Shown here one piece after another: positions 9,862 to 42,980 of a stretch of 42,980 nt of DNA. The translations under genes were made by a program, and so were the position numbers. The notes under the pieces were generated by a model, which had not been told where the DNA came from, searched no databases, and saw only the letters and a program-made list of their open reading frames with translations. Each line of letters opens with the position of its first letter. Positions within the stretch are counted from its first letter, which is position 1. Source of the stretch: Eubacteriales bacterium (lineage in GTDB: Bacteria; Bacillota; Clostridia; Oscillospirales; CAG-272); NCBI GenBank assembly GCA_045121315.1, contig JBGVFW010000281.1, forward strand, positions 1 to 42,980. The letters are read 5' to 3'.

Positions 9862-10848
9862 TTATTTTTTGGGTACATTAGGATTTTGATATAATATTTT
9901 CTCGGCTTTTGATGACTGTGTAGGTGGAATCCTGATAACGCTGATTTCGTTTTTTTCAGTATTCCCCTCAACAGATATTCCTGCTCGGCGAAGCTGATCG
10001 GCTTGCTCGCGGCTTACCTTTATGTAACGATACCGATTACTTTCGGCAAAAGTGATAACTTCCTTTGCGTGTTGCCGATAAGAGGTGAGATCCTCGGCGT
10101 TCCGTGCCGCTTTTAAATCGCTCACGGCAGTGACAATTTCTTTTAACTGCTCTGTTTCGTCAATCGTCCACCAACCGTTGAGAGTTCTGCTCTCAACCTC
10201 GGATGCTGATGAACAGCCAACAGCAGGGTATAAACAATCGCCGTTGCGGTTAAATAGCTTTATCGAATCAAACGCTCCTGCTTTTTCAATGGCGTCTAAA
10301 TTATCGGCAATAGCGTCCGCTACCATGTCGTGATGTGCTTTGGCGGTTGCACGGGGGATTTCACCTTGAGCAATAGCATTTTCATATCTCAAAATCGTAC
10401 TTTCATATGAAATTTGGCTTTTTACAGCCATAATATGAAGCTCAACCCGATAACCTTTTTCTTTTAGCATTTTACAGGAGCTTATTGGAACATTCGCAGT
10501 TCGTAAAGTCCCTTCGATAATTAGATTGTATTTCTCGGCACTTAATTCATCAATAAGCCGTTCTGTAACGCGGTTAATAAAAGGTTGGGTATATTTTGGA
10601 GATTCATTGCCGTACATATATTGAATTTCATCAAAGTACGGATGAAATTCGCGAAATGAGTCGGCGTTTATTATGATAATATTTTTATTATTATTTCTTA
10701 TTTGTTTTTGAAGCACTGTTTTTCCTGCGCCGGGTTGACCGCCCAGGATAAAAGCAGTTGGGTTGACTGTTTTTGAGTGCATTTTTGTAACCCAATGTTT
10801 GATTGCTGAATATTGTTCAAAAAACTGCGCATTAGAATATTCAAACAT
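9862..10848 (-). CDS. Zeta-toxin-family P-loop kinase with C-terminal extension
   Basis: Walker A ILGGQPGAGKTV near the N-terminus and overall zeta/PezT-like layout. An extra roughly 55-aa tail (YRYIKVSREQADQLRRAGISV...). Confidence 0.8.
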   Translation of the reverse strand: MFEYSNAQFFEQYSAIKHWVTKMHSKTVNPTAFILGGQPGAGKTVLQKQIRNNNKNIIIINADSFREFHPYFDEIQYMYGNESPKYTQPFINRVTERLIDELSAEKYNLIIEGTLRTANVPISSCKMLKEKGYRVELHIMAVKSQISYESTILRYENAIAQGEIPRATAKAHHDMVADAIADNLDAIEKAGAFDSIKLFNRNGDCLYPAVGCSSASEVESRTLNGWWTIDETEQLKEIVTAVSDLKAARNAEDLTSYRQHAKEVITFAESNRYRYIKVSREQADQLRRAGISVEGNTEKNEISVIRIPPTQSSKAEKILYQNPNVPKK

Positions 10849-18846: not shown

Positions 18847-19113
18847 ATGAGAGTTACATCAGTCGAGTTTGACGACAGATTGGCGACAAGACGTTTCTTA
18901 GGATACGCACATGTTACACTGGATAACCAGTATACCATTCGCAACATCAGCGTCAACTACCATCTGGTATTTTCTTTGCAAATGCCAAAGTCGGAGTATC
19001 ACAGGCTTGCGGCATACACGCCGCTTCCTGATAAAGCTCTGTATGACGAGATCGCGGAAGCGGTCATCAAAAGAGCATGTCAGAATCGCTTGTTGGACGT
19101 AAGTTTTTGTTAG
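18847..19113 (+). CDS. Second, divergent SpoVG-like protein
   Basis: ATG 18847 with SD AAAGGAG 7 nt upstream. MRVTSVEFDD...LGYAHVTLDNQYTIRNISV...LQMPK follows the same pattern. Confidence 0.55.
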   Translation: MRVTSVEFDDRLATRRFLGYAHVTLDNQYTIRNISVNYHLVFSLQMPKSEYHRLAAYTPLPDKALYDEIAEAVIKRACQNRLLDVSFC

Positions 19114-19125
19114 GAGGTTTTTATT

Positions 19126-19970: not shown

Positions 19971-19984
19971 TTCAATATGATAAG

Positions 19985-20017
19985 AAAAGCAGAGCAACAA
20001 AGCTCTGCTTTTCTGTT
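19985..20017 (+). terminator. Rho-independent terminator
   Basis: AAAAGCAGAGC-aacaaa-GCTCTGCTTTT followed by a T-rich tail. Confidence 0.6.
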
Positions 20018-20033
20018 CATTCGGAGGAATGTA

Positions 20034-21613: not shown

Positions 21614-21715
21614 AACACAGGTTTTAGTGAGTTTCGCCTGTGTACAGCTCACGGAGCTGATTCTCTCCTTGAAACGTGGGCGCGTAGAAAAACGCGCCCA
21701 TACACCAAATACACA

Positions 21716-21732
21716 ATGGGCAAATTGTCCAT
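21716..21732. repeat. Palindrome copy 15, variant ATGGGCAAATTGTCCAT (14/17)
   Basis: Has its own extended arms ACACAATGG / CCATTGTGT (21711..21737). Upstream of ORF 21808..22659. Confidence 0.6.
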
Positions 21733-21807
21733 TGTGTATTGAAAAAGAATCTCAACGGTGCTAGAGTAAAAGAATATTGAAATGTTTATCAAGAAAGGGT
21801 TTTTGCT

Positions 21808-22659
21808 ATGAAAAAATGGTTATTCATTTTTGCTCTTGCGGCGGTTATTTCAATGTCAGTCGTTTCATTGGTTGGCTGCGGAAAGAATGAAGTCAATCAT
21901 GCCAATGCCGCAGTGTCCGCGTCAGCGACACCATCAGAAGCAAAAAAGACGGAAGAAAGCACTGTCAACACAACGGCTCCTGCACAGACGCAGACCACAA
22001 CGTCTGTTGCTACCGATACCAAAACAGAAAACAAGAGCGCTGATAACAAATCGGCAACCAAAGGAACCGAAGCGACAGCGCCTGCCAATAACGCTTCAAA
22101 AACGGAGAACAATTCTAAGACAAGCGGCTCCTCGCAGACTCAGAGCAGCAATAAAAGCACTCAGTGCGGCAGTCAGACCAATGGTCAGACTAACAGCCAA
22201 ACCAATAATCAGAGCAGCAAAAGCACGAATAAAAACACAAGCAATAGTACCAATACCAACAATGGCTCGTCCTCAAAGAGTTCGTCGGCTGACCAACACG
22301 CCGGTAAAACTTGGCACGAAGCGGTATATAAAACCGTCAATCACCCTGCTGAAACAAAGCAGGTTAAGGTGGTAGACCAAGAAGCATACAGCTATGAGGA
22401 ACCTGTTTATGAAACGAGAAGAATTGCGAAATGCAAGGATTGTGGTATTGATTTGGCACAGTTAAGTGAAGATGAAGCATATAATCACTCAGAAACCCAT
22501 GTTCTCGCAGGCGGCGATGGTGGTTGGTACACTGCCACCGAACAGGTTCAGGTCGGTACAAAAACCGTCAACGTTCCGGAGCAATCGCATTACGAAACAA
22601 AAGTAATTAAAGAAGCGTGGACAGAAAAAGTGCTTGTCAAAGAAGCCGGTTGGTATTGA
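21808..22659 (+). CDS. Lipoprotein with S/T/N/Q-rich low-complexity region
   Basis: Signal peptide with lipobox LVGC. A roughly 140-aa low-complexity linker. Structured C-terminal roughly 110 aa. Confidence 0.65.
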   Translation: MKKWLFIFALAAVISMSVVSLVGCGKNEVNHANAAVSASATPSEAKKTEESTVNTTAPAQTQTTTSVATDTKTENKSADNKSATKGTEATAPANNASKTENNSKTSGSSQTQSSNKSTQCGSQTNGQTNSQTNNQSSKSTNKNTSNSTNTNNGSSSKSSSADQHAGKTWHEAVYKTVNHPAETKQVKVVDQEAYSYEEPVYETRRIAKCKDCGIDLAQLSEDEAYNHSETHVLAGGDGGWYTATEQVQVGTKTVNVPEQSHYETKVIKEAWTEKVLVKEAGWY

Positions 22660-22833
22660 TTCCCTGACAATCATCATCTTACAATCGAATATACACAAAC
22701 GATGGCACAGCTGAAACGCTGTGCCTTTTTTGCTTTTAAGGAGGAATGTAAAATGAAAGCCTTTGCCAACAGCAGGGACAGTCCGATTCTTATGGAAGTA
22801 AAACAACTACAATTTACGAGAGGAGGAAAAAGC

Positions 22834-27342: not shown

Positions 27343-27351
27343 GAGGTAAAC

Positions 27352-28860
27352 ATGATGAAAAAATACTTCACAAAATCAATCACAATTATTTTGGCGGCTG
27401 TGCTGTTGATTATGATGGCAGTTCCGTTCGCTTCGGCGGCAACCTTACTTAACGAGGATTTGAAGGTTTCCGTTACACTCAACTGCGATAAAGGAGGCTA
27501 CACCTTTGAACTTTTCGAGGTCGCCGCGCTCAAGACCAAAACAGACAGCCCTTACGAAACGTACTATGAGCCGCTTTTTGACGGCATTGCGGACGAAGTA
27601 AAGTCCGGCAAGACCAAAGACATTCTTGCCAAGCTCGATGAAATCTCTCCGGTCAACACCGATATGCCTTCAACTGCAATTTCCTATGGTTATTTTACTT
27701 CTTCTGAGAGCAGCAAAACAAAGACGTTCTCTGATCTCGAGCAGGGCATTTACTACGTCAAGTGCGTTAAGTTTCCTGCGGGCGTAAAGGCTGTTGAAAA
27801 CTCTGTATTTGCTCTGCCTTATTACGAAAACAATTCTTGGGTTTATACGCTCGACCCCATCAATCTTGCAACTAAAGTTGCGGACGATACGCCTACTACA
27901 GTAAAGGAAATTACCAATTCCACAAAGAACAATGTCAATTATACCGACGTTTCCATTGGCGACACCGTAGACTATGCGTTATATAATACTACCGCAGGCT
28001 CTATCGCGTATAAGCTCGAACAGTATACCGTTAAGGACAAAATGAGCAAAGGACTTACCTTTGACAGCAGTTCGGTTAAGGTCTATCTTGCAGACAGCAA
28101 CAAGACAAAGATCGCTGACCTCACAAAAGACACTGATTATAAGCTGAATATTACTTCTCAGGGCGATGGTAAGGACACTGAATTTAACATTGCGCTGACT
28201 AAAACCTATCTCGCAGAGAACGACTTCTACGCAGAAAATGTTGCATATGTGATCGCAACCTATTCAGCTGTTCTCAATAAACACAGCGTTATCGGCGCGG
28301 CAGGAAACCCTAATGACGATATTGAACTTGTCTATGGCAATCAGTCCTCCGTTGACAGTGTTCCCGGAAACCGCGTTTATACTTATACCTACGGTGTTGG
28401 CGTAATGAAGCTCAACGAGAGCGGTACTGCTTTAAGCGGAGCAAAATTTAGTATCTTCAAGACAAACGCTGATGCAGAAGCAAAGCAGAACGCGCTTGGT
28501 ACAGGCGTATCCGGCGCAGATGGTAAAGTTGTTTTCCTTAACGACAAAGAGGAAGAAGTCAAAGTTGCAAGCGGCGATTACTTTATTGCAGAGGTGGAAG
28601 CTCCGGAGGGCTATAACATCTACGGCAAGGTAATTCCTGTCAAGATTGAAGCAACCTACCATGAAGCAATTACCAATGAAACTTGGGTTAAAAACTGCCC
28701 TGCCGACGGTGCGGCGGTTGTAACGGTAACTGACACCAAGCTGATTGTACCGCAGACCGGCGGCTATGTGATGTACCTTTATATCGCAGGCGCTGTTTCC
28801 CTGATTCTCGGCGGCGTTCTTTTCGCTCTGTCCCGCAGAACCAAAAAGACAACTAAATAA
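27352..28860 (+). CDS. Sortase-assembled pilin/fimbrial shaft subunit
   Basis: Signal peptide. E-box-like YFIAEVEAPEGY. Sorting signal VPQTG + TM + RRTKK. Confidence 0.8.
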   Translation: MMKKYFTKSITIILAAVLLIMMAVPFASAATLLNEDLKVSVTLNCDKGGYTFELFEVAALKTKTDSPYETYYEPLFDGIADEVKSGKTKDILAKLDEISPVNTDMPSTAISYGYFTSSESSKTKTFSDLEQGIYYVKCVKFPAGVKAVENSVFALPYYENNSWVYTLDPINLATKVADDTPTTVKEITNSTKNNVNYTDVSIGDTVDYALYNTTAGSIAYKLEQYTVKDKMSKGLTFDSSSVKVYLADSNKTKIADLTKDTDYKLNITSQGDGKDTEFNIALTKTYLAENDFYAENVAYVIATYSAVLNKHSVIGAAGNPNDDIELVYGNQSSVDSVPGNRVYTYTYGVGVMKLNESGTALSGAKFSIFKTNADAEAKQNALGTGVSGADGKVVFLNDKEEEVKVASGDYFIAEVEAPEGYNIYGKVIPVKIEATYHEAITNETWVKNCPADGAAVVTVTDTKLIVPQTGGYVMYLYIAGAVSLILGGVLFALSRRTKKTTK

Positions 28861-28875
28861 TTAAACGATACAACA

Positions 28876-28899
28876 AGGGGCGGCCTTACGGCTGCCCCT
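28876..28899 (+). terminator. GC-rich hairpin (possible attenuator; no T-run)
   Basis: AGGGGCGGCC-ttac-GGCTGCCCCT between the pilin and sortase genes. Confidence 0.35.
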
Positions 28900-28912
28900 G
28901 AAACTTAATACT

Positions 28913-29773
28913 ATGAAAAAAATAATTATTCTTTCTTTGACACTCATTTTGGCAGGTTTCAGCCTTTTTTGTTTTTGCTATCCGTTTATCAGCAATCTGA
29001 TCAACGAGCATTACAACGAAAGTAAAATCAATGCGTATAACGATAATATAGACACTATTGAACAAAACGAGATCAACTCTTATTTCCATCAAGCAGAAGA
29101 TTACAATCGGCTGCTCGCAACCGATTTTTATGATAAAGCTGCTGAATCCGACGAAAGCTATCGCCGGATCATCAACAGCTATTTTGATATTTTGAATATC
29201 GACAACGGTATAATGGGATATATAGAAATCCCTGCCATTAACGTAAATCTGCCAATTTATCACGGTGAGAGCGAGGAAATACTGACCAAGGGCGCTGCCC
29301 ATCTGGAACGCACTTCCTTTCCAATCGGCGGCAACAGCACTCACGCTTGCATATCGGCACACAGCGGATTCCCGACACAAAAGTTTTTCGACGACATAGA
29401 TGAATTGGAAACAGGCGACACGATAACGATTAAAGTTCTGGATAGAACATTGTTGTACACGGTTTATGCAAACGAAGTGGTTGAGCCGGACGACGCCAGT
29501 AAGCTGCAAGTGATTAGTGGTGAGGATATTTTAACATTAGTGACTTGCTACCCGTATGGAATAAACAGTCACAGATTGCTTGTTCACGCACGGAGAACAC
29601 CGGTTGAAGTCAACAAAGAAGCTACGCATGACAGCACAACTCAGATAGCTGCAAAGCCGGAAAGAAACACCAATCATAAAGCCGTTCTATTTGGCTCTGT
29701 AATCGCCGTTACAGGGACTTTAGCGGTTTTGGGTATAGTTTTATTAAAACGAAAGAAAAACGCAAGGAGATGA
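28913..29773 (+). CDS. Class C (pilus-polymerising) sortase
   Basis: IPAINVNLPIYHGESEEILTKGAAHL, ACISAHSGF (His), LTLVTCYPYGINSHRLLVHARR (Cys/Arg), C-terminal TM + KRKKNARR. Confidence 0.9.
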   Translation: MKKIIILSLTLILAGFSLFCFCYPFISNLINEHYNESKINAYNDNIDTIEQNEINSYFHQAEDYNRLLATDFYDKAAESDESYRRIINSYFDILNIDNGIMGYIEIPAINVNLPIYHGESEEILTKGAAHLERTSFPIGGNSTHACISAHSGFPTQKFFDDIDELETGDTITIKVLDRTLLYTVYANEVVEPDDASKLQVISGEDILTLVTCYPYGINSHRLLVHARRTPVEVNKEATHDSTTQIAAKPERNTNHKAVLFGSVIAVTGTLAVLGIVLLKRKKNARR

Positions 29774-29777: not shown

Positions 29778-30629
29778 ATGGAGAGTTTGGATAGTTCGGG
29801 CAGGCGGATGTATTCGGTGCTTTTCATAAAGAGCGTCAATCAAACAACCGTTCTGGAAGAATATCAATACGGAGATATGATAGTCAGACTTCCACTTGGA
29901 GCATTGTTGTTTACTGTCGTGGAAGCTGAATTGCAACATACAGAGATCACGCCACCGCATGTTTTGTATGACCTCTATTATCTCTCGGAAGCGGAGAAAA
30001 AGCAGATTGCACGGCTGACAGAATATGTCGTAAAAATCAGTCAGGGAGACGAAGCGTTTGACCGTAGTTCTCTTAAAAACCTTTATTACACTATTCTTCC
30101 TCGCGGTCATGACTTCTGTTATTTGTTTGACAACTCTGAACGATACCGGTTCCGACGGCTGCGTTCAAAGCTGACATTACCATTTGGAAATACCACTGAA
30201 TTCGTTTTCAAAAAGCTCGCCGAAAAGTACGCGAGTTTTTCTTTCTCGGCGCAGACAGAATTTCATACACTGACAGAGTTGTGTGCTCTTTCGCTTTTTG
30301 AAATACTTGAAAGTGGACAAATTGTCCATCGCTGTGAATGTGGCAGATGGTATGTTGCTGAACCTTTGACGAAGGAATGCGATAGCTGTAAAAGGCAAAA
30401 AACAACTGACTATAACAGAAGTTACAGTAAGAGAAAAACCGTGCAGGAGTTCAAAAGAGTCTACAACAAGTTATTCATGCGAACAACACGAAATACGCAA
30501 TCGATCTCTGATACACAACTCTTTGAAGCGTTCAAAAATGAGTGGGCATTGTTAAAGATAAAATATCACAACTCGCCGGATTTTGAACAAAAGAAAATAG
30601 AATTTTTACAATCTGAAAGGTGGAAATAA
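29778..30629 (+). CDS. Hypothetical zinc-ribbon protein, distant relative of 6079..6792 / 6818..7531
   Basis: LSLFEILESGQIVHRCECGRWYV...CDSCKRQ aligns with ILFYEIIKANRK...IIRCKRCNRIFA...YC...C. A helical basic C-terminal half follows, as in the pair. Confidence 0.6.
   Translation: MESLDSSGRRMYSVLFIKSVNQTTVLEEYQYGDMIVRLPLGALLFTVVEAELQHTEITPPHVLYDLYYLSEAEKKQIARLTEYVVKISQGDEAFDRSSLKNLYYTILPRGHDFCYLFDNSERYRFRRLRSKLTLPFGNTTEFVFKKLAEKYASFSFSAQTEFHTLTELCALSLFEILESGQIVHRCECGRWYVAEPLTKECDSCKRQKTTDYNRSYSKRKTVQEFKRVYNKLFMRTTRNTQSISDTQLFEAFKNEWALLKIKYHNSPDFEQKKIEFLQSERWK
30313..30329. repeat. Palindrome copy 16, GTGGACAAATTGTCCAT (16/17)
   Basis: Inside ORF 29778..30629, read as SGQIVH immediately before the zinc ribbon. 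Confidence 0.85.
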
Positions 30630-32537: not shown

Positions 32538-32978
32538 ATGGAACGAGAGAGAAAAACCGAAAAATTATTATTAAGACTCACACCGACGGAAAAAAGAAAT
32601 ATCGATTATCACGCCCAACTGATGAATGTGTCGGTCAACCAATATATCTCATTGTTAATTCGCAGAAAGAGAATTGTGATTTGCGAGAATATTCCCGAAT
32701 TGATTTACCAAATTCAAAAAATCGGAAATAACATCAATCAAATCGCGGCTGTCGCGAACACAAATCAATATATTTCAATCAACAATGTTTCAGAGGTCGA
32801 GCGGTTAATGAAAGAATGCTACAATCTGCTGAACGGTTTTATAGATTTCATTTCCGAACCCGAAAAAAACTATTTACAAAACGATACGTCAAAAATATCC
32901 GATCAGCTTGAAAGTATATTTTCCTCCATTCAAATGATAAATAAGCAAATTGCAGAAATCAGAGAACAAAACGGATAG
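32538..32978 (+). CDS. mobC: MobC-family relaxosome accessory protein
   Basis: RHH-like LRLTPTEKRNIDYHAQLMNVSVNQYI and IGNNINQIAAVAN motif. SD GGAGG. Confidence 0.85.
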   Translation: MERERKTEKLLLRLTPTEKRNIDYHAQLMNVSVNQYISLLIRRKRIVICENIPELIYQIQKIGNNINQIAAVANTNQYISINNVSEVERLMKECYNLLNGFIDFISEPEKNYLQNDTSKISDQLESIFSSIQMINKQIAEIREQNG

Positions 32979-32987: not shown

Positions 32988-34793
32988 ATGGCAATCGTAA
33001 AAACCATTTCACCGAAAATCAAAACACAGGCGCATTTATGCGAAGCGCTCGCCTATATTACCCAAGAGAAAAAAGCAAGCTCCGTCTATTATTACCGGTG
33101 CCGGAATTATGACGGTATTGAACAGGTTGCGCGGGATTTTCAATCCACAAGGATTGCCTGTAACCAAAACAAAGGTATTCTTGCTTCTCACATTTGTCAA
33201 TCATTTTCTCCAGAGGATAAAGTCACACCTGAGCTTGCTCATAAAATGGGTATTGCAATGATAAAACGCTGTTTCCCTGATTATCAAGTAGTCTTAGCAA
33301 CTCACGCAGACAGAGAACATATTCACAATCATTTTATTCTTAATTCCGTAAGCGTCTTAGATGGCAAAAAATTTTATGAAAACAAATCCACACTTCGACA
33401 AATCCGAAAAGTCTCAGACGAACTTTGTTACAAAAATGATTTAAGCGTTATCGAAAGTGATAACGTGACAAAGTACGCTCCGCTTGACCAAGCGACGTTA
33501 AATGCCGCCAAGCGAGGGCATAGTTGGAAACTGCGATTAGTGAAAGATTTGGATAAGGCGCTTGAAGATTGTCAAAGCAAAAATGAATTCATCAATTATT
33601 TTCAAACGCACGGTTATGAAATCAAATTTACAAATAAAAACATTACGTTCAGAAAAAACGGAGAGAAAAAAGGAATCCGCGCCGATACGTTAGCCAAACA
33701 ATTCGGTCAAAAGTATTCTAAGGCAAGCATTGAAAAAAGACTGAACATTTCAAATTCAGAAAACATAAATCCGAAAGCGCACAATTCAGAATCAAGCGGC
33801 AGAAAATTTCAAATACCAAGTTACGATTACTACAATCAGCTCGCTGCGATTAATTGGAAACGGTATGAAAAGAAATATGCTGATAAAATCCGCGTAACTG
33901 ACAAACGGCTCGGCAGTCCCAACCTTTTCACAAAAAATCCTTTCCTGTTTTCGCTTCGGCTGATTAGATTCATTCTTAATCAAAAAAACAAAAACCGCTA
34001 TAACCAAAAGAGAAGAATTAAATCTTATTCGACCACTTATCAGGCTCGGTCTTTTGTTGATTACAAGCGCGGCAAAAAGATTTTGGAAAATGTTCCGTAC
34101 AAAGAAATCGTCAATACCTTTGGCGAAAGCGTTCAGATCAAATTGTACGCGTGGCAGATCACACACTTGATAAATAATAATATTCTTCTTTCAAGTCGTA
34201 TTGATTTGAAAACGGGTACGGCGGTTGTCACATTGAAACAATCAGACCTTCCGAGAGTGTCTGCAATTCTCGGTGTTCCTTGTGAAAACTTTATGGCACA
34301 AGCGGAACAAATGAAAAACAGAAGAATAACCGCCGAACTAAAAAAGAAGAATCTGAAACTGAGCTATCTTTTAATTTCTCCGGAACAGGCAGCAGCACTG
34401 CGAGAGCATTGTATTACATTTGCAAGTTATCCAAAAGGCGACAAGCTCAATGTCGCTTTTGCACCGGAGGATAAAGAAAAAGTCCTGAATGTCCTTTATC
34501 CCAACAGAGAAGAAAAGAAAGTGAACAAGGAAACATTCTTCAAGCGTAACGCGATAATTAACCAAAAGCTCAAACGGATTTCTTCTGAAACAGGCGAAAA
34601 GCTCTGTTACAAAATTGTATTGTCAAATCAATATAAATTGCTTAGAACAACCACATTGGAATTTGCTGTGTTCCGAACGGACGACGGTAAGTACAATGTG
34701 GTTTTTTTAGAATCACAAAAAGCTGCTATTGAAAAAGCGTTAGGAGCCTTTACTCCAAAAGCACCTAACGCCAATCAAAATATGAAATTGTAA
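32988..34793 (+). CDS. Relaxase (MobA/VirD2-type relaxase/mobilisation nuclease domain)
   Basis: His triad ATHADREHIHNHFILNSV. 601 aa. The C-terminal third contains three roughly 45-aa repeats. Confidence 0.9.
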   Translation: MAIVKTISPKIKTQAHLCEALAYITQEKKASSVYYYRCRNYDGIEQVARDFQSTRIACNQNKGILASHICQSFSPEDKVTPELAHKMGIAMIKRCFPDYQVVLATHADREHIHNHFILNSVSVLDGKKFYENKSTLRQIRKVSDELCYKNDLSVIESDNVTKYAPLDQATLNAAKRGHSWKLRLVKDLDKALEDCQSKNEFINYFQTHGYEIKFTNKNITFRKNGEKKGIRADTLAKQFGQKYSKASIEKRLNISNSENINPKAHNSESSGRKFQIPSYDYYNQLAAINWKRYEKKYADKIRVTDKRLGSPNLFTKNPFLFSLRLIRFILNQKNKNRYNQKRRIKSYSTTYQARSFVDYKRGKKILENVPYKEIVNTFGESVQIKLYAWQITHLINNNILLSSRIDLKTGTAVVTLKQSDLPRVSAILGVPCENFMAQAEQMKNRRITAELKKKNLKLSYLLISPEQAAALREHCITFASYPKGDKLNVAFAPEDKEKVLNVLYPNREEKKVNKETFFKRNAIINQKLKRISSETGEKLCYKIVLSNQYKLLRTTTLEFAVFRTDDGKYNVVFLESQKAAIEKALGAFTPKAPNANQNMKL

Positions 34794-34805
34794 GGTGGTG
34801 AAAAT

Positions 34806-34922
34806 ATGAACGAGAAGTCTTTTGAAAAAGAAATGGGTGTAACGTTTTCGGACAGCCTTCCGAACGGACAGCCGGAAGAAGAAATAATCTTTGATTGGAA
34901 CGGAGAGGAACTGAGTGAGTAA
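34806..34922 (+). CDS. Possible small acidic ORF (38 aa), below the track cutoff
   Basis: ATG 34806 with SD AAGGTGG 7-8 nt upstream. Encodes MNEKSFEKEMGVTFSDSLPNGQPEEEIIFDWNGEELSE. Overlaps the ArdC-like start. Confidence 0.3.
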   Translation: MNEKSFEKEMGVTFSDSLPNGQPEEEIIFDWNGEELSE

Positions 34923-36069
34923 GCTGAATAAAATGCGCGAGCAGATAGCCAATCAATTTATCGCTGCGCTGCAACAAGAAAGAATCCCGTGGCACCAAGA
35001 TTGGCAGGATACTTCCATGCCGCGCAATGCTGTAACCGGTAGAAGTTACAGAGGACTCAACTATTTTTGGTTAGCCATCATTTCACTGGACAGAGGGTAT
35101 CACGATCCGCGTTGGTGCACCTTTAATCAGGCTAAAGACAAAGGATGGAAAATTCGCAAAGGTGAGAAGGGTACGCGCGTTGAGTTTTGGACAATGTATG
35201 ATGTCAAAACCAAGAAGAAGCTCACGCCTTCTCAGGTACAGAAGCTGAGAGATACACTTGATCCGGTTGATTTTCACGACCGGATAAAGCCGATCTCCAA
35301 TGTGTTTACCGTTTTTAACGCGGCGCAGATCGACGGTATTACCGAACTTAAAGAGCAGCCACGCCAGAGGTTCAGCACAGCAGAGCTTATTGAAGCGCGT
35401 GACACGTTGTTAAAAAACATGGAGTTGGGCTTTCAAGAAGGTGGAAACAGTGCCTGTTACCGTCCGTCCGGCGATTACATTCGTATGCCACAGATAGAAA
35501 TGTTTGACGGTGCGTATAGCTATATGTCAACCTTCCTGCATGAAGCCGGACACGCTACGGGCGCAGCGAAACGTCTGAACCGTAATCTGTCTGGCGGTTT
35601 TGGAAGCGAGAGCTATGCCAAAGAAGAACTCAGAGCAGAAATCGCGTCAGCGTTCACAGCATGTGCGACCGGCATAAACTATGAGCAGTCACCTACAATG
35701 GAAAACCATGCTGCTTACATTCAGAACTGGATAAAGGTGTTGCAGGACAATCCCAACGAGCTTTTCGCGGCGATTAAAGACGCGGAGAAAATTTCCGATT
35801 ATCTCTTGGAAAAGGGCGAGTTTATCGTCAATGAACCGCCGGAACTTGACAACTCAGAGATTGATGCCGTGGAGCCAACAGAAGAAGGGTTTCACTACCG
35901 TGAAATATCTTTTGAGGATTTTAACAAACTGCGTGATGCAGGCTTTGATGTTGCAAGTAACTGCCGTCAGAGTACAAATCAGCCGGATATAGTTATTCTC
36001 CGATACACCGAACAGCAGTCAGCAGAGATAAATGCTGTTCTGCAACCGGTTAATGCTATGAAACGATAG
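34915..36069 (+). CDS. ardC: ArdC-like protein (ssDNA-binding N-domain + zincin metalloprotease domain)
   Basis: N-terminus QFIAALQQERIPWHQDW...RGLNYFWL and HExxH FLHEAGHATG. The start may be ATG 34933 rather than GTG 34915. Confidence 0.85.
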   Translation: MSKLNKMREQIANQFIAALQQERIPWHQDWQDTSMPRNAVTGRSYRGLNYFWLAIISLDRGYHDPRWCTFNQAKDKGWKIRKGEKGTRVEFWTMYDVKTKKKLTPSQVQKLRDTLDPVDFHDRIKPISNVFTVFNAAQIDGITELKEQPRQRFSTAELIEARDTLLKNMELGFQEGGNSACYRPSGDYIRMPQIEMFDGAYSYMSTFLHEAGHATGAAKRLNRNLSGGFGSESYAKEELRAEIASAFTACATGINYEQSPTMENHAAYIQNWIKVLQDNPNELFAAIKDAEKISDYLLEKGEFIVNEPPELDNSEIDAVEPTEEGFHYREISFEDFNKLRDAGFDVASNCRQSTNQPDIVILRYTEQQSAEINAVLQPVNAMKR

Positions 36070-36079: not shown

Positions 36080-36313
36080 ATGGAACTGATTCAAATACAA
36101 AGAGAGCCTACGGTGTGTTTACATTGTCAAAATTTATCTGGCAACGACGAGTATGAGTTTGGTGCTGACTTCACGTATGTAGAGCATAATGACTTGTTCT
36201 ATATCAGAAAGGACAAAGCAACTAACTCTTTTGACCTTGTGGTAGAAAAAGATAAAACAGACACTTCCTGCCGCATTTACTTCTGCCCGATTTGTGGCAG
36301 AAAACTTGTGTAA
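36080..36313 (+). CDS. Small zinc-ribbon protein, unknown function
   Basis: CLHC...CPICGRKL. SD TAGGAGA upstream. Confidence 0.5.
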   Translation: MELIQIQREPTVCLHCQNLSGNDEYEFGADFTYVEHNDLFYIRKDKATNSFDLVVEKDKTDTSCRIYFCPICGRKLV

Positions 36314-36363: not shown

Positions 36364-36639
36364 TCAAAAATCAAGGTCGGAATGTGTACCGGTACGGATA
36401 AGGAGTAAAATCAGCTCGTCTTTTTGAATCTCATACACTAACAACCAATCCGGCTCAATGTGACATTCGCGGCAACCAACATAGTTGCCCGTCAGAGCGT
36501 GATCACGGTTTTTTGGCGGTAAGGCAATTCCGTTGGCGAGCTGTTCGACAACTGACCATAGCTTTTCCTCGTCATAACCGCGTTTGGAGATTTGCTTCAA
36601 ATCCTTTTTGAATCTATTATGAACTCTAATTTTCAGCAT
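36364..36639 (-). CDS. yafQ: YafQ-family (RelE/ParE superfamily) type II toxin
   Basis: KNRDHALTGNYVGCRECHIEPDWLLVYEI...RTGTHSDL closely follows the YafQ pattern. Confidence 0.9.
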   Translation of the reverse strand: MLKIRVHNRFKKDLKQISKRGYDEEKLWSVVEQLANGIALPPKNRDHALTGNYVGCRECHIEPDWLLVYEIQKDELILLLIRTGTHSDLDF

Positions 36640-36892
36640 GAAGCGCCTCTCTCAACTCAGCCACGGAATTGTAGGGTTCACTTAAATTGATTCCGTTATG
36701 TGCTTCAAAAATAGCTTGTTCGGTTTCCGCATTATATCTTGACTGACGAACCATAAACGGAATACCTCCAAATGCAATAGCCTGACGCAAAAATATATTC
36801 ATTGCCGTACTCATGTCCAATCCGAGAGAAGCAAAAAGCTCCTGTGCCTGTGTTTTGACTTCATCGTCTACTCGAATATTTATATTCGCCAT
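36626..36892 (-). CDS. dinJ: DinJ/RelB-family antitoxin
   Basis: Start at ATG 36892 (SD AAAGGAG). MANINIRVDDEVKTQAQELFASLGLDMSTAMNIFLRQ. Overlaps the toxin start. Confidence 0.85.
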   Translation of the reverse strand: MANINIRVDDEVKTQAQELFASLGLDMSTAMNIFLRQAIAFGGIPFMVRQSRYNAETEQAIFEAHNGINLSEPYNSVAELREALHAEN

Positions 36893-36914
36893 ATTAGCAT
36901 CTCCTTTCATCATT

Positions 36915-36943
36915 ATTATATCACGATATGTGCACAATGTCAA
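36915..36943 (-). promoter_or_regulatory. Consensus promoter of dinJ-yafQ
   Basis: On the minus strand: TTGACA, 17 nt, TATAAT. Confidence 0.6.
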
Positions 36944-36972
36944 CACAATAAACATATTGATATTCTGTTTCA

Positions 36973-36989: not shown

Positions 36990-37076
36990 TTTTTCTTTTT
37001 TCAGAGGTGAGTCCAATGTAGAGAAAAAACAATCATTTGGAAACAATTATTCATGAATTTAAGGAGAACTGTACCT

Positions 37077-40000
37077 ATGAATGAAAAATACCTTAAATTA
37101 ACAAAACAATTCAACGATACCGTTTCTCAGCTCTCTCAATCGCCTGCTGAGTTTAACCGGTTCTTGAGGGTAGCTGCTTTTAATTATCGCTTGACCTTTC
37201 AAAATGCTGTCTTGGCATACGCGCAAGACACCGGTTCTGATTTGCTGCTGACTTATGAACAGTGGCAATCGTACAGACGGGTTCCAAAAAGGCATACAAA
37301 AGCGACTTTACTTTTTGATGTCAACCACCGTGGAAGATATGTTGTGACGTTTCCAATGTCGCGAACGGTTGTGGACAAACGCATCCACCGTTACAGAGAG
37401 CTGCGTCTCTTTGATTACAGAAATGATGCTGCGGTTGTGGAAGCTCTGAAAGCTGTCTTTCAGACGGACGCGGATAATCTGGCTGAGATCCTCTATGCCG
37501 AAAATCTCAAGAGATTTGAGAGTAATTTTGACGAAGCATATCCGGCGTTTGAGAATGAGACTGATTTTTTGGCTAAAGCAGTTACCAATATGCTTATGTG
37601 CCGTTTCGGAGAAGAAATGCCTTATAAGACCTTTTCTTTCTCTGATGGTATCAACAGGGATAATATCGAGCACATCTATCAAATGGTGATTGATGTTTTT
37701 CGCGCAGAGTATGCCGAAATTGTGACCGCTCTCCCTGCCGAGTTGGAAAAAGCGCGTGAGCAAAAGGAAGATAATGACCTGTCTTTTGATGTCACAGGCA
37801 AACAGGACGTTATCAGTCTTTTCAAAGAAAAAACCAACGAGCTTTTTCACAGCATAGACGGTCTATCCCCTTCTGAAATTGAGCAGATAGTCAGAGAGTA
37901 TGCCGAAAGCATATTTGCCGAAAACGAGATTTCAGCAGAGATTGTCGGAATAGCTGTCAGCGGTTCCCGTTGCCGCGCTTTAGAACACAACGGCTCCGAT
38001 TTGGACGTTGTGATTGAGGTGCAGTCGGATACAAAGGAAACAGCTCTTTTCAATCTGCTTAATGAGCACGCTTTTGAAATCGGCGGCGTTCGGGTTGATA
38101 TTAACCCGATTAAGGCTGATGAAACAGGAACGCTCAGCGAGTATTTGCCTACAGTGGAAAAATATTTGAATCAAATAGAAATCCTTGATTATGGCAAATA
38201 TATCATTGACAGCAGCTCGGTGTTTCATGCAAAAAGAGGAAGTATCTACACCATACCGATTGATACTTCTCCTAATCTTCGGCGCAGGCTTGAAAAAGTC
38301 GGGCTTGTACCAAGAGACGAAATGACAGACGTTGTGTTTGAAAGCGATAACGGTTCTTGGAATAAACTGATTATCCCCGACCGCTACGGCAACAAAACCA
38401 ACAGCATTGATATTTCCGACGTTTTATCACAAGGAGAAATGTCTGTTGCACAAAAGATACTGAACGATGTTATCGAGCGCGAACAGTCGATTGAAAAAGC
38501 GAAACAAAACATAAACAAAGATGATATTGAAATACTTCAAACATTAGAGCCGAGAAAAAGCGTCTTGAATTTCTCTCAGGACGAGCTTGCGCGGACTTCT
38601 GTCTGGAGTGAACGGTTTGCGGCTGACATAGGCAAAAAATCGCCGTTTTACAGATCAGAAAACGGCGAGTGGCGTGACCGCGATGAAAGTAAGAGCCAAA
38701 TCATAACAGTCGAAGCTGTTGAGACGGATTTTCAGAGTGTCCGTAATGACATTAAGGCTCAGAAAATCAAGAGAGGAATAACCGTAAATAAAGATACGCT
38801 TTGGAGTATTCAGATAAGTCGCAAGGGGCTTGAAGATAGTGTAAAATATGGCTTTAATCATAAAAACGGAAACATTTACAGTCTATTGTATGCTATTCAA
38901 AATATTGTTGCCAATAGCGTTCTTTTGGATAGTAATATTTCTGAAAATAACAATAACAATAAAGCCTATAACACGGCGTTCATGCACAAGCTCTACGCTA
39001 TTTGCAGAATCGGCGACCAACCTGTTTTGGCAAAGCTGACCGTAGAAGAATTTCTTGACGGCAAAGGCTCTACGCTAAAGAGAATGTACAATCTGCAAGA
39101 CATAAAAACGGAACCGCTCAGGCACATAGAGTTCACTGATAATCAGTTAGCTCGCTCAGTCCTGAACGGTTCTGAAATAAGTGTAGCAGATTTATTCAGG
39201 GTTGTCAAGGCGTTAGATAAAGACTTTTATCTAAACAAACAGCCGCATGAACAAGCAAAGGTGTTTCAGGTTATCACCAATGCAGGCGATGACGGCGGCT
39301 ACGATGAAAAACCGGAACACGGCACTCTTGATGAAGCGATTCAGGCAGGAAATCAGTATATAGCCGACGGTTATATTGGTTTTAGTGTTTACAATGAGGA
39401 GACGAAGCGGATTGAGTATGTTTCCGGTCAATTTGACGTAGAGAGCGCTTATTCCGCTGAAATCCTCGAAATCAATCAAATACCGGTTCCGTCTGATTTG
39501 AATAATCAGTATGTGCAAGGTGATACCAATTTTAATATTTTTGATGAAGAAGCTGAAAGAAAAAAATATCCGTTTTTTGGACACAGCGAAATAGTCAATG
39601 AAATGTTATCGGCTACACCTTATCTCAAAGCTAATCTTGACGAGATTCGTGCGTACTTTGAATCGGAAACAGATGCGGTTGTCAGACAACAGTATATCCG
39701 TGGTGTTTTCAACGATGATTTTTCCGAAGTAATTCTATCTGATGGAACACGCGTAGGATATAAAACCTATGAAAACGGATTGCTGATTTGGAAAGGTCGC
39801 TATCCAAATCGTGAAGGACAGCGTTTTTTGCATTGGGACAACGTTGTGGGACATTTTGATGCTATGCGTATGCTCGGAATGTTACACAATGGTGCTTTTG
39901 CAAATGATATGCATAATGGGCAGCTGACGTTGGTGCAAGGCATAAACGACGAACCTGAGAAAGCGTTTACTTTTTCTCAGGAAGTAATCGACAAGGCTCT

Positions 40001-42980
40001 GATACGCGGCAGCGGTATAGAAAGCGGAAAATTCAGAATCTATGAGCAATTTCAAAAAGGTTTGTCAGCAAAAGAAAATATCACTTTTCTGAAAAATGAG
40101 TATGGCATTGGCGGTTGTTCAGAAATCATTCCCTATACCGGTATCGCAGAAGATCATAACGGTCAGGGAATCCTTCTGCGGCTTGGTTATCAAGAAAACT
40201 CACCGCGTCAGCAATTGACTTGGAAGCAAGTTGAAAAACGAATTGGTGAGCTGATACAAAACGCTCTTTATCTTAATCAATCGGAAAAAGAACACTATCC
40301 TGATTGGCTGAAACAACAGGAACAGCGCAGAGCTGAACTGAAATCAGAGCGTGAATTAAGAGATGCTGTATATCAGCCGTCTGAGCCAACAAAAGCTGCT
40401 TACAGTCCGACAATGCAGGAATATTTCAAGGTAAAGGGCGAAAACCCTGACAGTATTATTCTGTTCCAGATTGGCGCGTTTTATGAAGCAATGGGAGACG
40501 ACGCAAAAGTAGTGTCCGAAGCGCTCGAATTGATTGTTACTAGCCGCCGTTTGTTAGGCGACGAAGGCATAGAAATGTGCGGCTTTCCTGAAAACCGACT
40601 GGAAACAAACCTGAATATGCTCCTTGACAGAGGTTATTCAGTTGGTGTTTCAAGTGTTGATGAAAACGGCAACCGTTCTTTTATCCTGATGGTATCAGAT
40701 AGGGCGCATGAGCCGATAAATTCAGAGCCGGTAGGCAGGATTGATTATCTGACTGCGGAAGGTGAGCTTGATCGCTCAATCGAGTACACCAATCCCACAA
40801 TGCTTGAAAAGGATATAAAGGAAGAAAGTACCTATGATGTAAAAATGGCAGTCTATCTCTATCGTGATAAAGACGGTAGGGTTATGCAGCATGATTTTAT
40901 TGATAGGTTGCCAAATCCCTTGCAGCACTTTGAGATTATCGACAAACCTGCTTCACAGTCTGAGCATGACGTTCTTTTGAATCGGGCGCAGGAGCTGATA
41001 AGTGAGTACATGGACGCAGAATTTGGCAGTGATAATGACGAACCGTATGAACTCCCGGAAGATATTTCTGACGTTAATCTGGCGTATACAACTACCGAAG
41101 ATGAACAGCATGAAATTACTGCTGACGCAAACCTCGTCGATTTCCGTATCGAAACGAAAATTGACGGCAAGGTCGTCCGAACAGAGCAGTATGACTCTTT
41201 ACTGGATATGGTGGAAAACGGTCTGGACGGATTGAGGTTTGACGACCTTGTGTATGTCAGCGATGAAGAACTGGCACCGTTCTATGATGAACCAACAGAG
41301 GAAAAAAACGACGTGCTTCCTGCTGAAAAGCCTTCATTGAAGCTGACGCAGGAAGATATTGACAGTCTGATCATTCAGCGCGCAACCACTGCCAACGCAA
41401 AGCTGCGTGCTTTTCATGCGGTACACGGCGGTGAGAGCGACGACACAATTATTAGCATTCTCAGAGAGGGATACAGTCAAAACGGCAAGACAATAAGATC
41501 GGACAGCGGAATGCCATTGTATATCAGCTGTGACTTTAGAGGAATCTTTGTAGGAGACTTTGAGAATCGTTTTACACCTGTGCTTCTGACCTATCATCAA
41601 CTGTTACAGCGTATCAAGGAACTTACGCTTACCAATCGCTATCTTTCAGATTCGGAGTATTTGGCGTATGCGGAGGAATATCGTCTCTTTGATAAAGCCG
41701 AAAGACTGAGAGAAGTGAATTTTCAATATAGTGCCGGAGATACCATCTATCTCAGCGGACAGCCGTATATCATTTCTGATTTGAGCGGTGACACTGTAAC
41801 GGTTTACCAACCGGATGCGCCGTTGTTTGTTCATAACTATGACCGTGCGGAGTTTGAAGCGCTGCTGCTGCAAAATATTGACGACAATATGCAGCTTGTT
41901 GTCAAGCCGCAAACGCATTATGAGATCTATCAGCTTGTCGATTCAGAAAGAACGGATAAATACATGTTTTTATCCTTAAAAGCGCTTGAAGATTCTCATC
42001 TTACTATTGAGCGTTCCAACTATACCTTAGTGTATACAGGAACTCTTGGGGAGAGCGAAAACATTGATTCTCTGTATGAGCGTTTTAACATTCATGCTCC
42101 ATCTGACTTCTATGGTTATTCAATGTCGGTTTCTGATGTTGTAGTGCTCACAAGAAATGATGTGAGCGTGGCTTACTATTGTGACGACGTAGGCTTCACC
42201 GAAATTCCGGGATTTATGACTTACGAGCGCATAAGGGACTATGTGTTGTTTCATCCGCAGGAGCGCACCGTTTCATGGATTTATTTCAATCCTGATGGCA
42301 ATCTTGGGAATGGACAAATTGTCCACGAATTTATTTCCGTAGACGAACTGGCAAGCCGTATTGATTCGTTGACGAGAGACGAGTTGCCGGATTATTTTTC
42401 AGATTTCGGAACGCAGCAAGTGTATGACATTGAGAATCCTGAATGGTATACAACCGAGTATGACCAATACGCCAATGAACAGCCTGCCGGTTTGAGAATG
42501 GTTTGGAATTCACACATGTCAGATGAAAACTACGAAGCCTTTAAGGATATTGTCAAGGAATTTCAGCAGGCTTCAAAAGTTTATCAAGCGCCGCAAGTTG
42601 TTATCAATTTTTCGGAGCACCCTGCACTGTATCAAATTTCTCATGAAAAAACAAGACTCAGTTTTACCTATGCGAACGAGCTGCTTGGCAGACTGGATAT
42701 GTTGGAGAATGCCAAACGCGAAAATCCTGCGGCTGGTTTCTACTACAAAACCGATTACACCGTTTATGGTTCTGAAGACGGAATAAATCTTGTTCGTCTG
42801 AACGGACGATATGACCTTGCCGATGGTGAAACAAATCTGGTCGGTCATATTGAACGTGTCAGAAAAGCAGAAAGCGGCGAAAACGCAGAGACGTTAAGCG
42901 CTTGGCTGTCTATGTTGCAGGACAGCATTGAGAGCAATCCTTTGACAGAAGCGGAAAAGAATGAGATTGACCAGATAGTG
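37077..42980 (+). CDS. Giant multidomain 'polyvalent' protein, 3'-partial (at least 1968 codons, runs off the window)
   Basis: Not in the supplied ORF track because no stop is reached. The frame is open from the stop at 37008-37010 to nt 42980. ATG 37077 follows SD AAGGAG (alternative ATG 37053). Domains recognised by eye are an ArdC-N-like domain (about 37150-37320), a Pol-beta-type nucleotidyltransferase VSGSRCRALEHNGSDLDVVIEV (about 37860-38170), a MutS domain-I-like segment MQEYFKVKGENPDSIILFQIGAFYEAMGDDA...MCGFPE (about 40409-40700), and a YodL-like domain (about 41915-42215). Confidence 0.85.
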   Translation, partial: MNEKYLKLTKQFNDTVSQLSQSPAEFNRFLRVAAFNYRLTFQNAVLAYAQDTGSDLLLTYEQWQSYRRVPKRHTKATLLFDVNHRGRYVVTFPMSRTVVDKRIHRYRELRLFDYRNDAAVVEALKAVFQTDADNLAEILYAENLKRFESNFDEAYPAFENETDFLAKAVTNMLMCRFGEEMPYKTFSFSDGINRDNIEHIYQMVIDVFRAEYAEIVTALPAELEKAREQKEDNDLSFDVTGKQDVISLFKEKTNELFHSIDGLSPSEIEQIVREYAESIFAENEISAEIVGIAVSGSRCRALEHNGSDLDVVIEVQSDTKETALFNLLNEHAFEIGGVRVDINPIKADETGTLSEYLPTVEKYLNQIEILDYGKYIIDSSSVFHAKRGSIYTIPIDTSPNLRRRLEKVGLVPRDEMTDVVFESDNGSWNKLIIPDRYGNKTNSIDISDVLSQGEMSVAQKILNDVIEREQSIEKAKQNINKDDIEILQTLEPRKSVLNFSQDELARTSVWSERFAADIGKKSPFYRSENGEWRDRDESKSQIITVEAVETDFQSVRNDIKAQKIKRGITVNKDTLWSIQISRKGLEDSVKYGFNHKNGNIYSLLYAIQNIVANSVLLDSNISENNNNNKAYNTAFMHKLYAICRIGDQPVLAKLTVEEFLDGKGSTLKRMYNLQDIKTEPLRHIEFTDNQLARSVLNGSEISVADLFRVVKALDKDFYLNKQPHEQAKVFQVITNAGDDGGYDEKPEHGTLDEAIQAGNQYIADGYIGFSVYNEETKRIEYVSGQFDVESAYSAEILEINQIPVPSDLNNQYVQGDTNFNIFDEEAERKKYPFFGHSEIVNEMLSATPYLKANLDEIRAYFESETDAVVRQQYIRGVFNDDFSEVILSDGTRVGYKTYENGLLIWKGRYPNREGQRFLHWDNVVGHFDAMRMLGMLHNGAFANDMHNGQLTLVQGINDEPEKAFTFSQEVIDKALIRGSGIESGKFRIYEQFQKGLSAKENITFLKNEYGIGGCSEIIPYTGIAEDHNGQGILLRLGYQENSPRQQLTWKQVEKRIGELIQNALYLNQSEKEHYPDWLKQQEQRRAELKSERELRDAVYQPSEPTKAAYSPTMQEYFKVKGENPDSIILFQIGAFYEAMGDDAKVVSEALELIVTSRRLLGDEGIEMCGFPENRLETNLNMLLDRGYSVGVSSVDENGNRSFILMVSDRAHEPINSEPVGRIDYLTAEGELDRSIEYTNPTMLEKDIKEESTYDVKMAVYLYRDKDGRVMQHDFIDRLPNPLQHFEIIDKPASQSEHDVLLNRAQELISEYMDAEFGSDNDEPYELPEDISDVNLAYTTTEDEQHEITADANLVDFRIETKIDGKVVRTEQYDSLLDMVENGLDGLRFDDLVYVSDEELAPFYDEPTEEKNDVLPAEKPSLKLTQEDIDSLIIQRATTANAKLRAFHAVHGGESDDTIISILREGYSQNGKTIRSDSGMPLYISCDFRGIFVGDFENRFTPVLLTYHQLLQRIKELTLTNRYLSDSEYLAYAEEYRLFDKAERLREVNFQYSAGDTIYLSGQPYIISDLSGDTVTVYQPDAPLFVHNYDRAEFEALLLQNIDDNMQLVVKPQTHYEIYQLVDSERTDKYMFLSLKALEDSHLTIERSNYTLVYTGTLGESENIDSLYERFNIHAPSDFYGYSMSVSDVVVLTRNDVSVAYYCDDVGFTEIPGFMTYERIRDYVLFHPQERTVSWIYFNPDGNLGNGQIVHEFISVDELASRIDSLTRDELPDYFSDFGTQQVYDIENPEWYTTEYDQYANEQPAGLRMVWNSHMSDENYEAFKDIVKEFQQASKVYQAPQVVINFSEHPALYQISHEKTRLSFTYANELLGRLDMLENAKRENPAAGFYYKTDYTVYGSEDGINLVRLNGRYDLADGETNLVGHIERVRKAESGENAETLSAWLSMLQDSIESNPLTEAEKNEIDQIV
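42310..42326. repeat. Palindrome copy 18, ATGGACAAATTGTCCAC (16/17)
   Basis: Inside the giant ORF, read as NGQIVH. Confidence 0.85.

Follow-up and report, generated by a model that had tools for sequence, protein, structure and literature searches.

A C-terminal module on the relaxase, ArdC-like protein, and zeta toxin of a Clostridia conjugative element is a candidate signal for type IV secretion

The window analyzed here is a stretch of 42,980 nt from an Eubacteriales bacterium (CAG-272; contig JBGVFW010000281.1 of assembly GCA_045121315.1, forward strand). According to Pfam annotation, its gene content is that of a Gram-positive conjugative element, with genes for a Big_2 surface protein, topoisomerase III, a DUF3991/Toprim primase, an integrase, ParA/ParB, two sortases with SpaA-type pilins, SSB, a G5 protein, MobC/NikA, a relaxase, and a YafQ/RelB pair. 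Three proteins of the element, namely the relaxase, an ArdC-like anti-restriction protein, and a zeta-type toxin kinase, end in what profile comparisons indicate is one domain. It is present in three copies on the relaxase (R1, R2, and R3) and in one copy each on the ArdC-like protein (A) and zeta (Z; table 1). A sequence-only reading of the same DNA had named these three proteins and pointed to a C-terminal module in common. The five peptides that it gave are all exact, with end coordinates off by no more than 3 nt, and its naming of the proteins agrees with matches to Pfam Relaxase, ArdcN plus MPTase-PolyVal, and Zeta_toxin.

The relaxase has an N-terminal nuclease domain, a helical middle region, and then the three tandem module copies, which are spaced by long helices. 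Across 51 homologues, H106, H113, and Y23 never vary, and H85 almost never does. The His triad and Tyr of an HUH nuclease, together with the adjacent MobC/NikA gene, place the protein among MobA/VirD2 relaxases of the MOBP/MOBQ type. NCBIfam models for SAG1250/MobP relaxases match its N-terminal part only, and matches of the full protein to plasmid relaxases in PLSDB are confined to the nuclease domain. No module was found in a cultured Vescimonas element that has a related relaxase. The ArdC-like protein combines an ArdC-N single-stranded DNA (ssDNA)-binding domain with a zincin metallopeptidase whose HEAGH motif is visible in the translation, its activity being predicted from sequence.

Table 1. 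Coordinates of the module copies, the genes that carry them, and associated genes in the window
Feature	Coordinates	Strand	Evidence
Zeta/PezT-type toxin kinase, 328 aa, Walker A GGQPGAGKT	9862..10848	-	Pfam Zeta_toxin aa 23-208, E 3.1e-45; NCBIfam PezT, E 5.3e-57
Module copy Z, zeta aa 273-319; followed by tail YQNPNVPKK (9865-9891)	9892..10032	-	Zeta-family tail profile, 77.9 bits
Epsilon-type antitoxin, 96 aa, overlaps zeta start codon	10848..11138	-	Homology to open reading frames with PF08998 matches
MobC/NikA-like relaxosome accessory protein, adjoins relaxase 5'	32538..32978	+	Pfam NikA-like, E 2.3e-10; MobC, E 1.4e-7
MobA/VirD2-type (MOBP-like) relaxase, 601 aa	32988..34793	+	Pfam Relaxase aa 23-152, E 9.8e-32
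Module copy R1, aa 382-428, most divergent	34131..34271	+	hhalign of R1 family with zeta tails, E 3.5e-5, in register
Module copy R2, aa 458-503	34359..34496	+	Zeta-tail-only hidden Markov model, independent E-value 1.5e-7; hhalign Z-R2 and R2-R3
Module copy R3, aa 539-585, terminal	34602..34742	+	hhalign Z-R3, E 2e-7; iterated profile, independent E-value 3.9e-16
Relaxase C-terminal tail GAFTPKAPNANQNMKL, polar, predicted disordered, basic/hydrophobic end	34743..34790	+	AlphaFold2 pLDDT <50, aa 589-601
ArdC-like anti-restriction protein, 384 aa	34915..36069	+	Pfam ArdcN aa 6-112, E 5.6e-32; MPTase-PolyVal aa 162-287, E 1.6e-38
Module copy A, ArdC aa 326-376; followed by tail QPVNAMKR (36043-36066)	35890..36042	+	Profile without A-type tails
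Giant polyvalent protein, 5' part, at least 1990 aa, runs past window end	37011..42980	+	Open stop-to-stop frame

Pfam assigns no family to the tails of the relaxase, ArdC-like protein, and zeta at E ≤ 1. Pairwise searches with BLASTP inside the window connect the zeta tail to the ArdC tail (29% identity over 51 aa, E ~5e-5, the best pair) and to R2 (E 0.002-0.006), with nothing between ArdC and the relaxase. Leave-one-out hidden Markov models (HMMs) of the five copies recovered R2 (E 0.09) and Z (E 0.16) weakly and A (E 3.8) poorly, and did not recover R1 and R3. A word-indexed database search with the five-copy alignment returned six candidates and one match. Judged from the window sequences alone, the similarity is marginal, and profiles of homologue families were therefore needed for a test.

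Family profiles connect the copies far more firmly. A profile made solely from zeta tails matches the window relaxase at a full-sequence E-value of 2.4e-13, with R2 as its strongest copy and R1 and R3 weak but in register. The same profile matches all 113 of 113 relaxase homologues. When slices of the families were compared using hhalign, Z and R2 aligned with 98% probability (E 1.5e-13), R2 and R3 with 98.4% (E 8.7e-15), Z and R3 with 93.6%, and Z and R1 with 71.6%. Control slices from the middle region of the relaxase (aa 200-252 and 290-342) gave E-values of 0.03-0.6, and two slices of the linkers between copies gave 0.04-0.19 versus the broad profile. The ArdC tail is not found by the zeta-only profile; a profile of 203 instances without ArdC-type tails finds it in register (full E 8.2e-6, independent E-value 3.8e-4, HMM positions 1-48). 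Compared as a family by hhalign (the window, L001, P0353, P0328, P0343, and P0374), ArdC-type tails match the broad profile at E 2.2e-14, zeta tails at 3.7e-13, R2 at 1e-6, and R3 at 9e-8. The module is likewise found at the end of two more ArdC-N/metallopeptidase proteins, P0325 and P0327, which belong to different clusters at 50% identity.

The most divergent copy, R1, is not picked up by plain HMM searches, and its hhalign comparisons with R2 and R3 do not rise above the controls. For the broad profile, the match to R1 (E 2e-6) is partly circular because this profile holds some R1-position copies of other relaxases. Independent support for R1 comes from the zeta-only comparison and from structure prediction. 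Thus, with comparisons of family profiles that reach E-values of 1e-13 to 1e-15 for Z, R2, R3, and A, the module in common claimed in the sequence-only reading is borne out, and the profile and structural evidence together indicate that the five segments are homologous copies of one domain of ~50 residues.

Structure prediction gives this domain a small alpha/beta fold. AlphaFold2 (AF2) predicts a beta-alpha-(beta)-beta-alpha unit for the module alone (37-sequence alignment, pLDDT 75) and three successive units with an identical order of elements in the full relaxase (51 homologues, pLDDT 78). The predicted strands (E) and helices (H) are E381-387, H388-396, E402-406, E411-417, and H418-428 in R1 (pLDDT ~90); E459-463, H465-473, E478-483, E486-491, and H493-503 in R2; and E539-544, H546-553, E560-563, E569-574, and H575-586 in R3. 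The three relaxase copies are therefore predicted to have the same beta-alpha-beta-beta-alpha topology, the outcome of a structural comparison that had been proposed along with the module itself. Long helices (aa 432-454 and 517-535) lie between units, and the last 13 residues are predicted to be disordered. Conserved positions are mostly residues of the hydrophobic core, with no evident catalytic or ligand motif. Foldseek searches with the module model against PDB and BFVD (viral models) returned nothing at E ≤ 0.001; the best, nonsignificant matches were to generic small alpha/beta folds (EscJ ring-building motif, PstA/PII, ACT, and KH). A sequence-profile search of PDB gave nothing significant (best E 0.11). 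No Pfam family recurs over the module on the 100 module proteins scanned, no NCBIfam model covers it, and no earlier description was found in the literature, of which our coverage was not exhaustive.

The module was sought by an exhaustive HMMER search of 1.84 billion representative proteins (E ≤ 1e-3; clusters at 50% identity), a search that the sequence-only reading had also suggested for the element and for databases. The profile matched 177 clusters, with whole-library E-values of 2.4e-51 for the top relaxase and 1e-5 to 3e-23 for nonrelaxase proteins, and found no additional copies in the window at E ≤ 0.01. Three long, highly repetitive proteins among the matches (P0244, P0278, and P0284) look like false positives. 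The module is nearly always the last folded element of its protein, 2-25 residues short of the C-terminus: in 143 of 150 representatives among the matches listed, 2-34 residues (median 6) separate the last copy from the end of the protein. The short stretch that follows is polar and mostly closes with Lys/Arg, to which a last hydrophobic residue is sometimes added. Lys/Arg frequencies are 0.53 at position -1 and 0.50 at -2, compared with 0.28 and 0.22 in background open reading frames (ORFs) of the same loci. In the window, the relaxase ends in NQNMKL, the ArdC-like protein in VNAMKR, and zeta in NPNVPKK; homologues of the relaxase end in NLKL, NIKI, PKI, or KKR.

Fusion partners of the module are diverse. 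In a Pfam scan of 100 module proteins, 42 had a Relaxase domain. The others include PBECR4 nuclease, Zeta, ParA/AAA_31, ToxN, SpoVG, LPD1/LPD5, HepT, ArdcN with DUF6782, NikA, Fic, DUF6036 nucleotidyltransferase, HTH_3, DnaG zinc ribbon, and LRR_5. At least 15 Pfam families were found N-terminal of the module. Relaxases carry 2-5 tandem copies, and other, unrelated proteins of the same transfer regions carry one or two. Presence on the relaxase and on nonrelaxase proteins of one element is seen in the window and again in related loci L008-L013, in which the relaxase (three copies), a 108-aa protein, and SpoVG, YodL, and polyvalent proteins bear the module. ToxN-module and Fic-module proteins were found on short contigs only. 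Two database fragments, P0351 (113 aa) and P0001 (80 aa), join unrelated N-terminal pieces, one an ABC-ATPase-like sequence and the other the zeta Walker-A region, to the ArdC tail or zeta tail. These are probably chimeras of assembly or gene calling and not new architectures. A 733-aa relaxase homologue (P0233) has four to five tandem copies rather than three, with five stretches matched by the zeta-only profile; sequence comparison thus indicates that copy number on the relaxase differs between elements.

A relaxase is the one obligatory substrate of a conjugative type IV secretion system (T4SS); the relaxase must be recognized by the coupling protein, and many T4SS substrates need a positively charged C-terminal end. 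We consider it rather probable that the module is a modular C-terminal recruitment signal for the conjugative T4SS of this lineage of gut and rumen Clostridia elements; recognition by the type IV coupling protein (T4CP) and transfer into the recipient would follow from such a role. A T4SS-substrate signal is the best fit on four grounds: the strictly C-terminal position of the module, the basic tail after it, its occurrence on the relaxase, and partners whose classes are known to be transferred or have been proposed to be. An F-type T4SS translocates ParA and SSB (PMC8406263, available in part), ArdC is described as transmitted along with DNA (bioRxiv 10.1101/361121, available in part), and polyvalent proteins, for which transfer has been proposed, contain Zeta, ArdC-N, and YodL domains (PMC5512222, available in part). 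The sequence-only reading had put forward a portable docking or translocation module. Its portability is strongly upheld by the variety of domain families joined to the module, and a mark of T4SS substrates or relaxosome partners is what the module would most readily be.

In the mechanism that we propose, the VirD4-type coupling protein of the element would recognize the module and its basic tail, and the relaxase-DNA complex, the ArdC-like protein, and the zeta toxin would thereby be delivered into the recipient. Related elements would deliver ToxN, HepT, Fic, and PBECR4 toxins, ParA, primase, SpoVG, YodL, and polyvalent proteins in the same way. Once in the recipient, ArdC would protect the incoming DNA. 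Zeta would be neutralized only if the element establishes and expresses epsilon, so that recipients destroying the incoming DNA would be penalized.

Several observations weigh against a T4SS-substrate signal. The enrichment of basic residues at the end is modest, only about two-fold, and Lys-rich ends occur also on close homologues of zeta that are free of the module. Genes for the T4CP and the T4SS core fall outside of the window. Polyvalent proteins of L008 and L010 would be expected as cargo, but no module was detected on them. Partners such as NikA, HTH_3, ParA, SpoVG, and primase are DNA associated and fit a role in docking to the relaxosome or DNA equally well. The family is also narrow, its 177 clusters coming from metagenomic Clostridia only, and PLSDB plasmids yielded no tblastn match to the C-terminal region of the relaxase or to the zeta tail; no characterized system therefore carries the module.

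The module has functional counterparts in other systems, the closest being BID, a helical domain of ~100 aa in Gram-negative alpha-proteobacteria. BID occurs on relaxases of alpha-proteobacteria, on VbhT (a FicT toxin), and on a PezT toxin encoded by Chelativorans plasmid 1, and transfer of VbhT by a conjugative T4SS has been demonstrated experimentally (PMC5675462). Like the BID of Bartonella Beps, VbhT, and conjugative relaxases, the module is a predicted folded domain on relaxases and unrelated proteins, is C-terminal, and has a basic tail after it. BID has also been fused independently and repeatedly to toxins of toxin-antitoxin systems beside DNA-transfer genes (the FicT toxin VbhT and PezT/zeta), and here a PezT-like zeta and a VbhT-like Fic protein (P0364) carry the module in the place of BID. 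The FIC part of P0364 (280 aa; L015 455-1297) best matches the NCBIfam VbhT model (E 8.1e-51), and the protein ends in the module and not in BID. The module differs in its size of ~50 aa, its beta-alpha-beta-beta-alpha topology, its occurrence in Gram-positive Clostridia, and its tandem arrays of 3-5 copies on the relaxase. Homology to BID was not found: no Pfam family falls on the tails of the window proteins or recurs on those of the 100 module proteins, the predicted fold is not a helical bundle, and Foldseek against PDB returned nothing at E ≤ 0.001.

Another counterpart, the XVIPCD, is ~120 aa in length. A range of toxic effectors, all with a partner immunity protein, bear it as a mark for a VirD4 coupling protein; unlike the module, it belongs to a dedicated killing T4SS of Xanthomonadales and is not on relaxases of conjugative elements. 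It is described as the conserved C-terminal domain by which VirD4 recognizes antibacterial effectors of the X-T4SS (PMC8740702, available in part). No homology between XVIPCD and the module was detected. Relaxases have dedicated elements for recognition by the coupling protein, sometimes several, such as the internal translocation signals TSA and TSB of F/R1 TraI. These two are subdomains associated with the helicase, are specific to TraI-type relaxases, and are not portable to other proteins. C-terminal Arg-rich signals of the Agrobacterium VirE2/VirF type differ in being unstructured tails without a folded module. Polyvalent proteins of conjugative elements, as presented in the available part of PMC5512222 (Iyer, Burroughs, Anand, de Souza, and Aravind, 2017), have the same effector domains, occur in the same kind of Firmicutes elements, and are proposed to be delivered with DNA. 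Their repertoire includes ArdC-N with a zincin peptidase, a zeta-like kinase, YodL, PBECR nucleases, LPD, and SNF2/methylase domains (PMC5512222). In those proteins, effector domains are concatenated in a giant polypeptide, whereas here solo versions each have their own C-terminal module; the polyvalent protein of L012 does terminate in the module. The available part of the same paper does not mention the module. A folded C-terminal signal common to a relaxase and toxins is thus already known from BID and XVIPCD; what is new here is the domain, its predicted fold, the tandem array on a relaxase, and the Gram-positive setting.

The main alternative role is docking at the relaxosome, in which a protein-protein module, for instance a homotypic one, tethers accessory proteins to the relaxase array or another component of the relaxosome. 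Partners would then assemble at oriT or ride on the relaxase without direct recognition by the coupling protein. The three tandem copies on the relaxase (four or five in P0233), with scaffold-like spacing by long helices, would suit such a role, as would the one or two copies on partner proteins and the involvement of several partners (NikA, ParA, primase, and ArdC) in the relaxosome or DNA processing. Conservation mainly of the hydrophobic core, without an obvious catalytic or ligand motif, is also in keeping with it. However, a pure docking domain needs neither a near-C-terminal place nor a basic end, and ToxN, HepT, Fic, and Zeta toxins have no known role in the relaxosome. Moreover, T4SS translocation requires substrates to unfold (PMC5826034, available in part), which makes noncovalent piggybacking hard. 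We regard docking as unlikely, though it deserves serious consideration.

The module could also be a small nucleic acid-binding domain that recognizes ssDNA, oriT, or RNA and directs proteins to the transferred strand or plasmid DNA. Many fusion partners work on DNA or RNA (relaxase, ArdC, primase, ParA, SpoVG, HTH proteins, and RNase toxins), and the predicted fold has a weak, nonsignificant likeness to KH-like and other small alpha/beta nucleic acid-binding folds and to one phage "DNA-binding protein." The net charge of the module core, however, is near neutral and widely variable (median ~+1, range -12 to +9; window copies -3 to +3), which argues against generic binding of nucleic acids. 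Conserved basic surface positions were not found, and Foldseek gave no match at E ≤ 0.001. There is no reason for Zeta, a UDP-GlcNAc kinase, or for Fic or an LRR protein to bind DNA, and the strict C-terminal position would be left unexplained. Together, these points make a nucleic acid-binding role improbable. Chance or compositional likeness among Lys/Glu-rich tails of an AT-rich genome, with no common function, could account for the marginal statistics within the window (leave-one-out E-values of 0.09-3.8 with R1 and R3 missed, and an empty BLASTP comparison of ArdC and relaxase), but it is barely credible against the separation of family profiles from control segments of the same proteins, the whole-library E-values, and the single fold that AF2 predicts for three copies, and it is effectively refuted for Z, R2, R3, and A. 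A type VII secretion signal and a degradation tag were set aside by reasoning alone, since the association with relaxases and a T4SS gene context favor another explanation.

The organization of the zeta locus bears on what a transferred toxin would do. The same tail is present in 77 of 114 zeta homologues of at least 250 aa. Zeta is a P-loop kinase with an epsilon gene adjacent and upstream, the arrangement of epsilon/zeta (PezAT) systems. The epsilon ORF itself has no Pfam match at E ≤ 1e-3; its counterparts upstream of zeta in L016 and L017, with which it shares 42% and 41% identity (E 1.6e-22 and 4e-20), have PF08998 Epsilon_antitox matches. Because the overlapping upstream ORF is homologous to ORFs annotated with PF08998, zeta is on homology grounds a member of a canonical epsilon/zeta pair that has also acquired the module, much as in VbhT/VbhA and the PezT-BID fusion of alpha-proteobacteria. 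The sequence-only reading had cast zeta as a transferred effector rather than a simple addiction toxin. This either/or does not hold, as the adjacent, overlapping epsilon gene has been kept; zeta is probably both an addiction toxin and a transferred protein. Close zeta homologues without the module (P0084-P0121) have Lys/Arg-rich, low-complexity ends, with a Lys/Arg fraction of 0.30 in the last 10 residues. These ends may be a different, unstructured signal or a mere effect of composition.

Close relatives of the window are rumen and gut assemblies of Ruminococcus/Ruminococcaceae. Searching genome contigs with the ArdC-like protein returned just two close relatives, both from one Ruminococcus metagenome-assembled genome. 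In related contig L016, VirB4- and TrbL/VirB6-like genes are directly upstream of the shared order of Big_2, topoisomerase III, and primase genes, which places the T4SS core just outside the start of the window. The gene order of L008-L013 runs from relaxase to a polyvalent protein of 2300-2700 aa, the module protein of ~108 aa, the SpoVG-module protein, and a VirD4-type T4CP gene. The window and L019, a contig 98.9% identical to it, both end inside the polyvalent gene. In L019, this protein is 3648 aa with LPD3/MutS_I/YodL/LPD25/SNF2 matches, ~1000 aa longer than in L008, L010, and L012. The module at the end of the L012 polyvalent protein (11873-18937; 19.3 bits versus the broad profile) is 60% identical (E 3e-18) to that at the end of the adjacent YodL protein (18955-19416). 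The pair is much closer than module copies on different proteins usually are, suggesting a recent duplication or gene conversion inside one element.

Other features of the transfer region vary among relatives. In relatives without an ArdC gene (e.g., L008, 11818-12226), a conserved gene for a 77-aa Cys-rich protein directly follows the relaxase and precedes the polyvalent gene. The window encodes a protein 59% identical to it at 36080-36313, with the ArdC-like gene between it and the relaxase, and a YafQ/RelB toxin-antitoxin pair follows (36364-36955, minus strand). The ArdC-like gene and the YafQ/RelB pair look like insertions into the transfer operon. A complete cluster for a sortase-dependent pilus, comprising two sortases, a 1546-aa SpaA-repeat protein with a thioester domain, and a 502-aa backbone pilin, lies inside the conjugation region (19977-29773). 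Its arrangement is kept in L008 and L012, and it may be the mating adhesin of these elements. The window also has three paralogous DUF6076 proteins (6052-6792, 6818-7531, and 29778-30629), the first two adjacent; elsewhere, L008 has a DUF6076 gene upstream of SSB, and L010 has one upstream of the G5 gene. Rfam gave nothing in the window, and megablast of the region against PLSDB plasmids gave zero matches.

A December 2025 review describes limited experimental evidence on how relaxosomes are recruited to the coupling protein in Gram-positive conjugation and names just a single candidate effector-translocating system in a Gram-positive species (PMC12857230, available in part). The module gives a testable handle on substrate recognition in Gram-positive conjugation, a way to predict the transferred proteome of elements of gut and rumen Clostridia, and a possible tag for engineered delivery of proteins between Gram-positive bacteria. 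We tentatively suggest, at a little short of even chances, that it is the first substrate signal of a Gram-positive conjugative T4SS recognizable from sequence, and that it is routine for these elements to inject toxins for which the incoming DNA encodes the antidote. In that case, everything that recipients are injected with could be read directly from genomes. It would include toxins from at least five toxin-antitoxin families (Zeta, ToxN, HepT, Fic, and PBECR4) together with anti-restriction proteins, ParA, and primase. Recipients that restrict the element or fail to establish it would be punished. For zeta, it is plausible that a recipient would survive only if the element establishes and expresses epsilon. 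This would extend to Firmicutes the repeated recruitment of toxins from toxin-antitoxin systems as proteins delivered by conjugation, which so far has been shown only for BID-bearing plasmids of alpha-proteobacteria.

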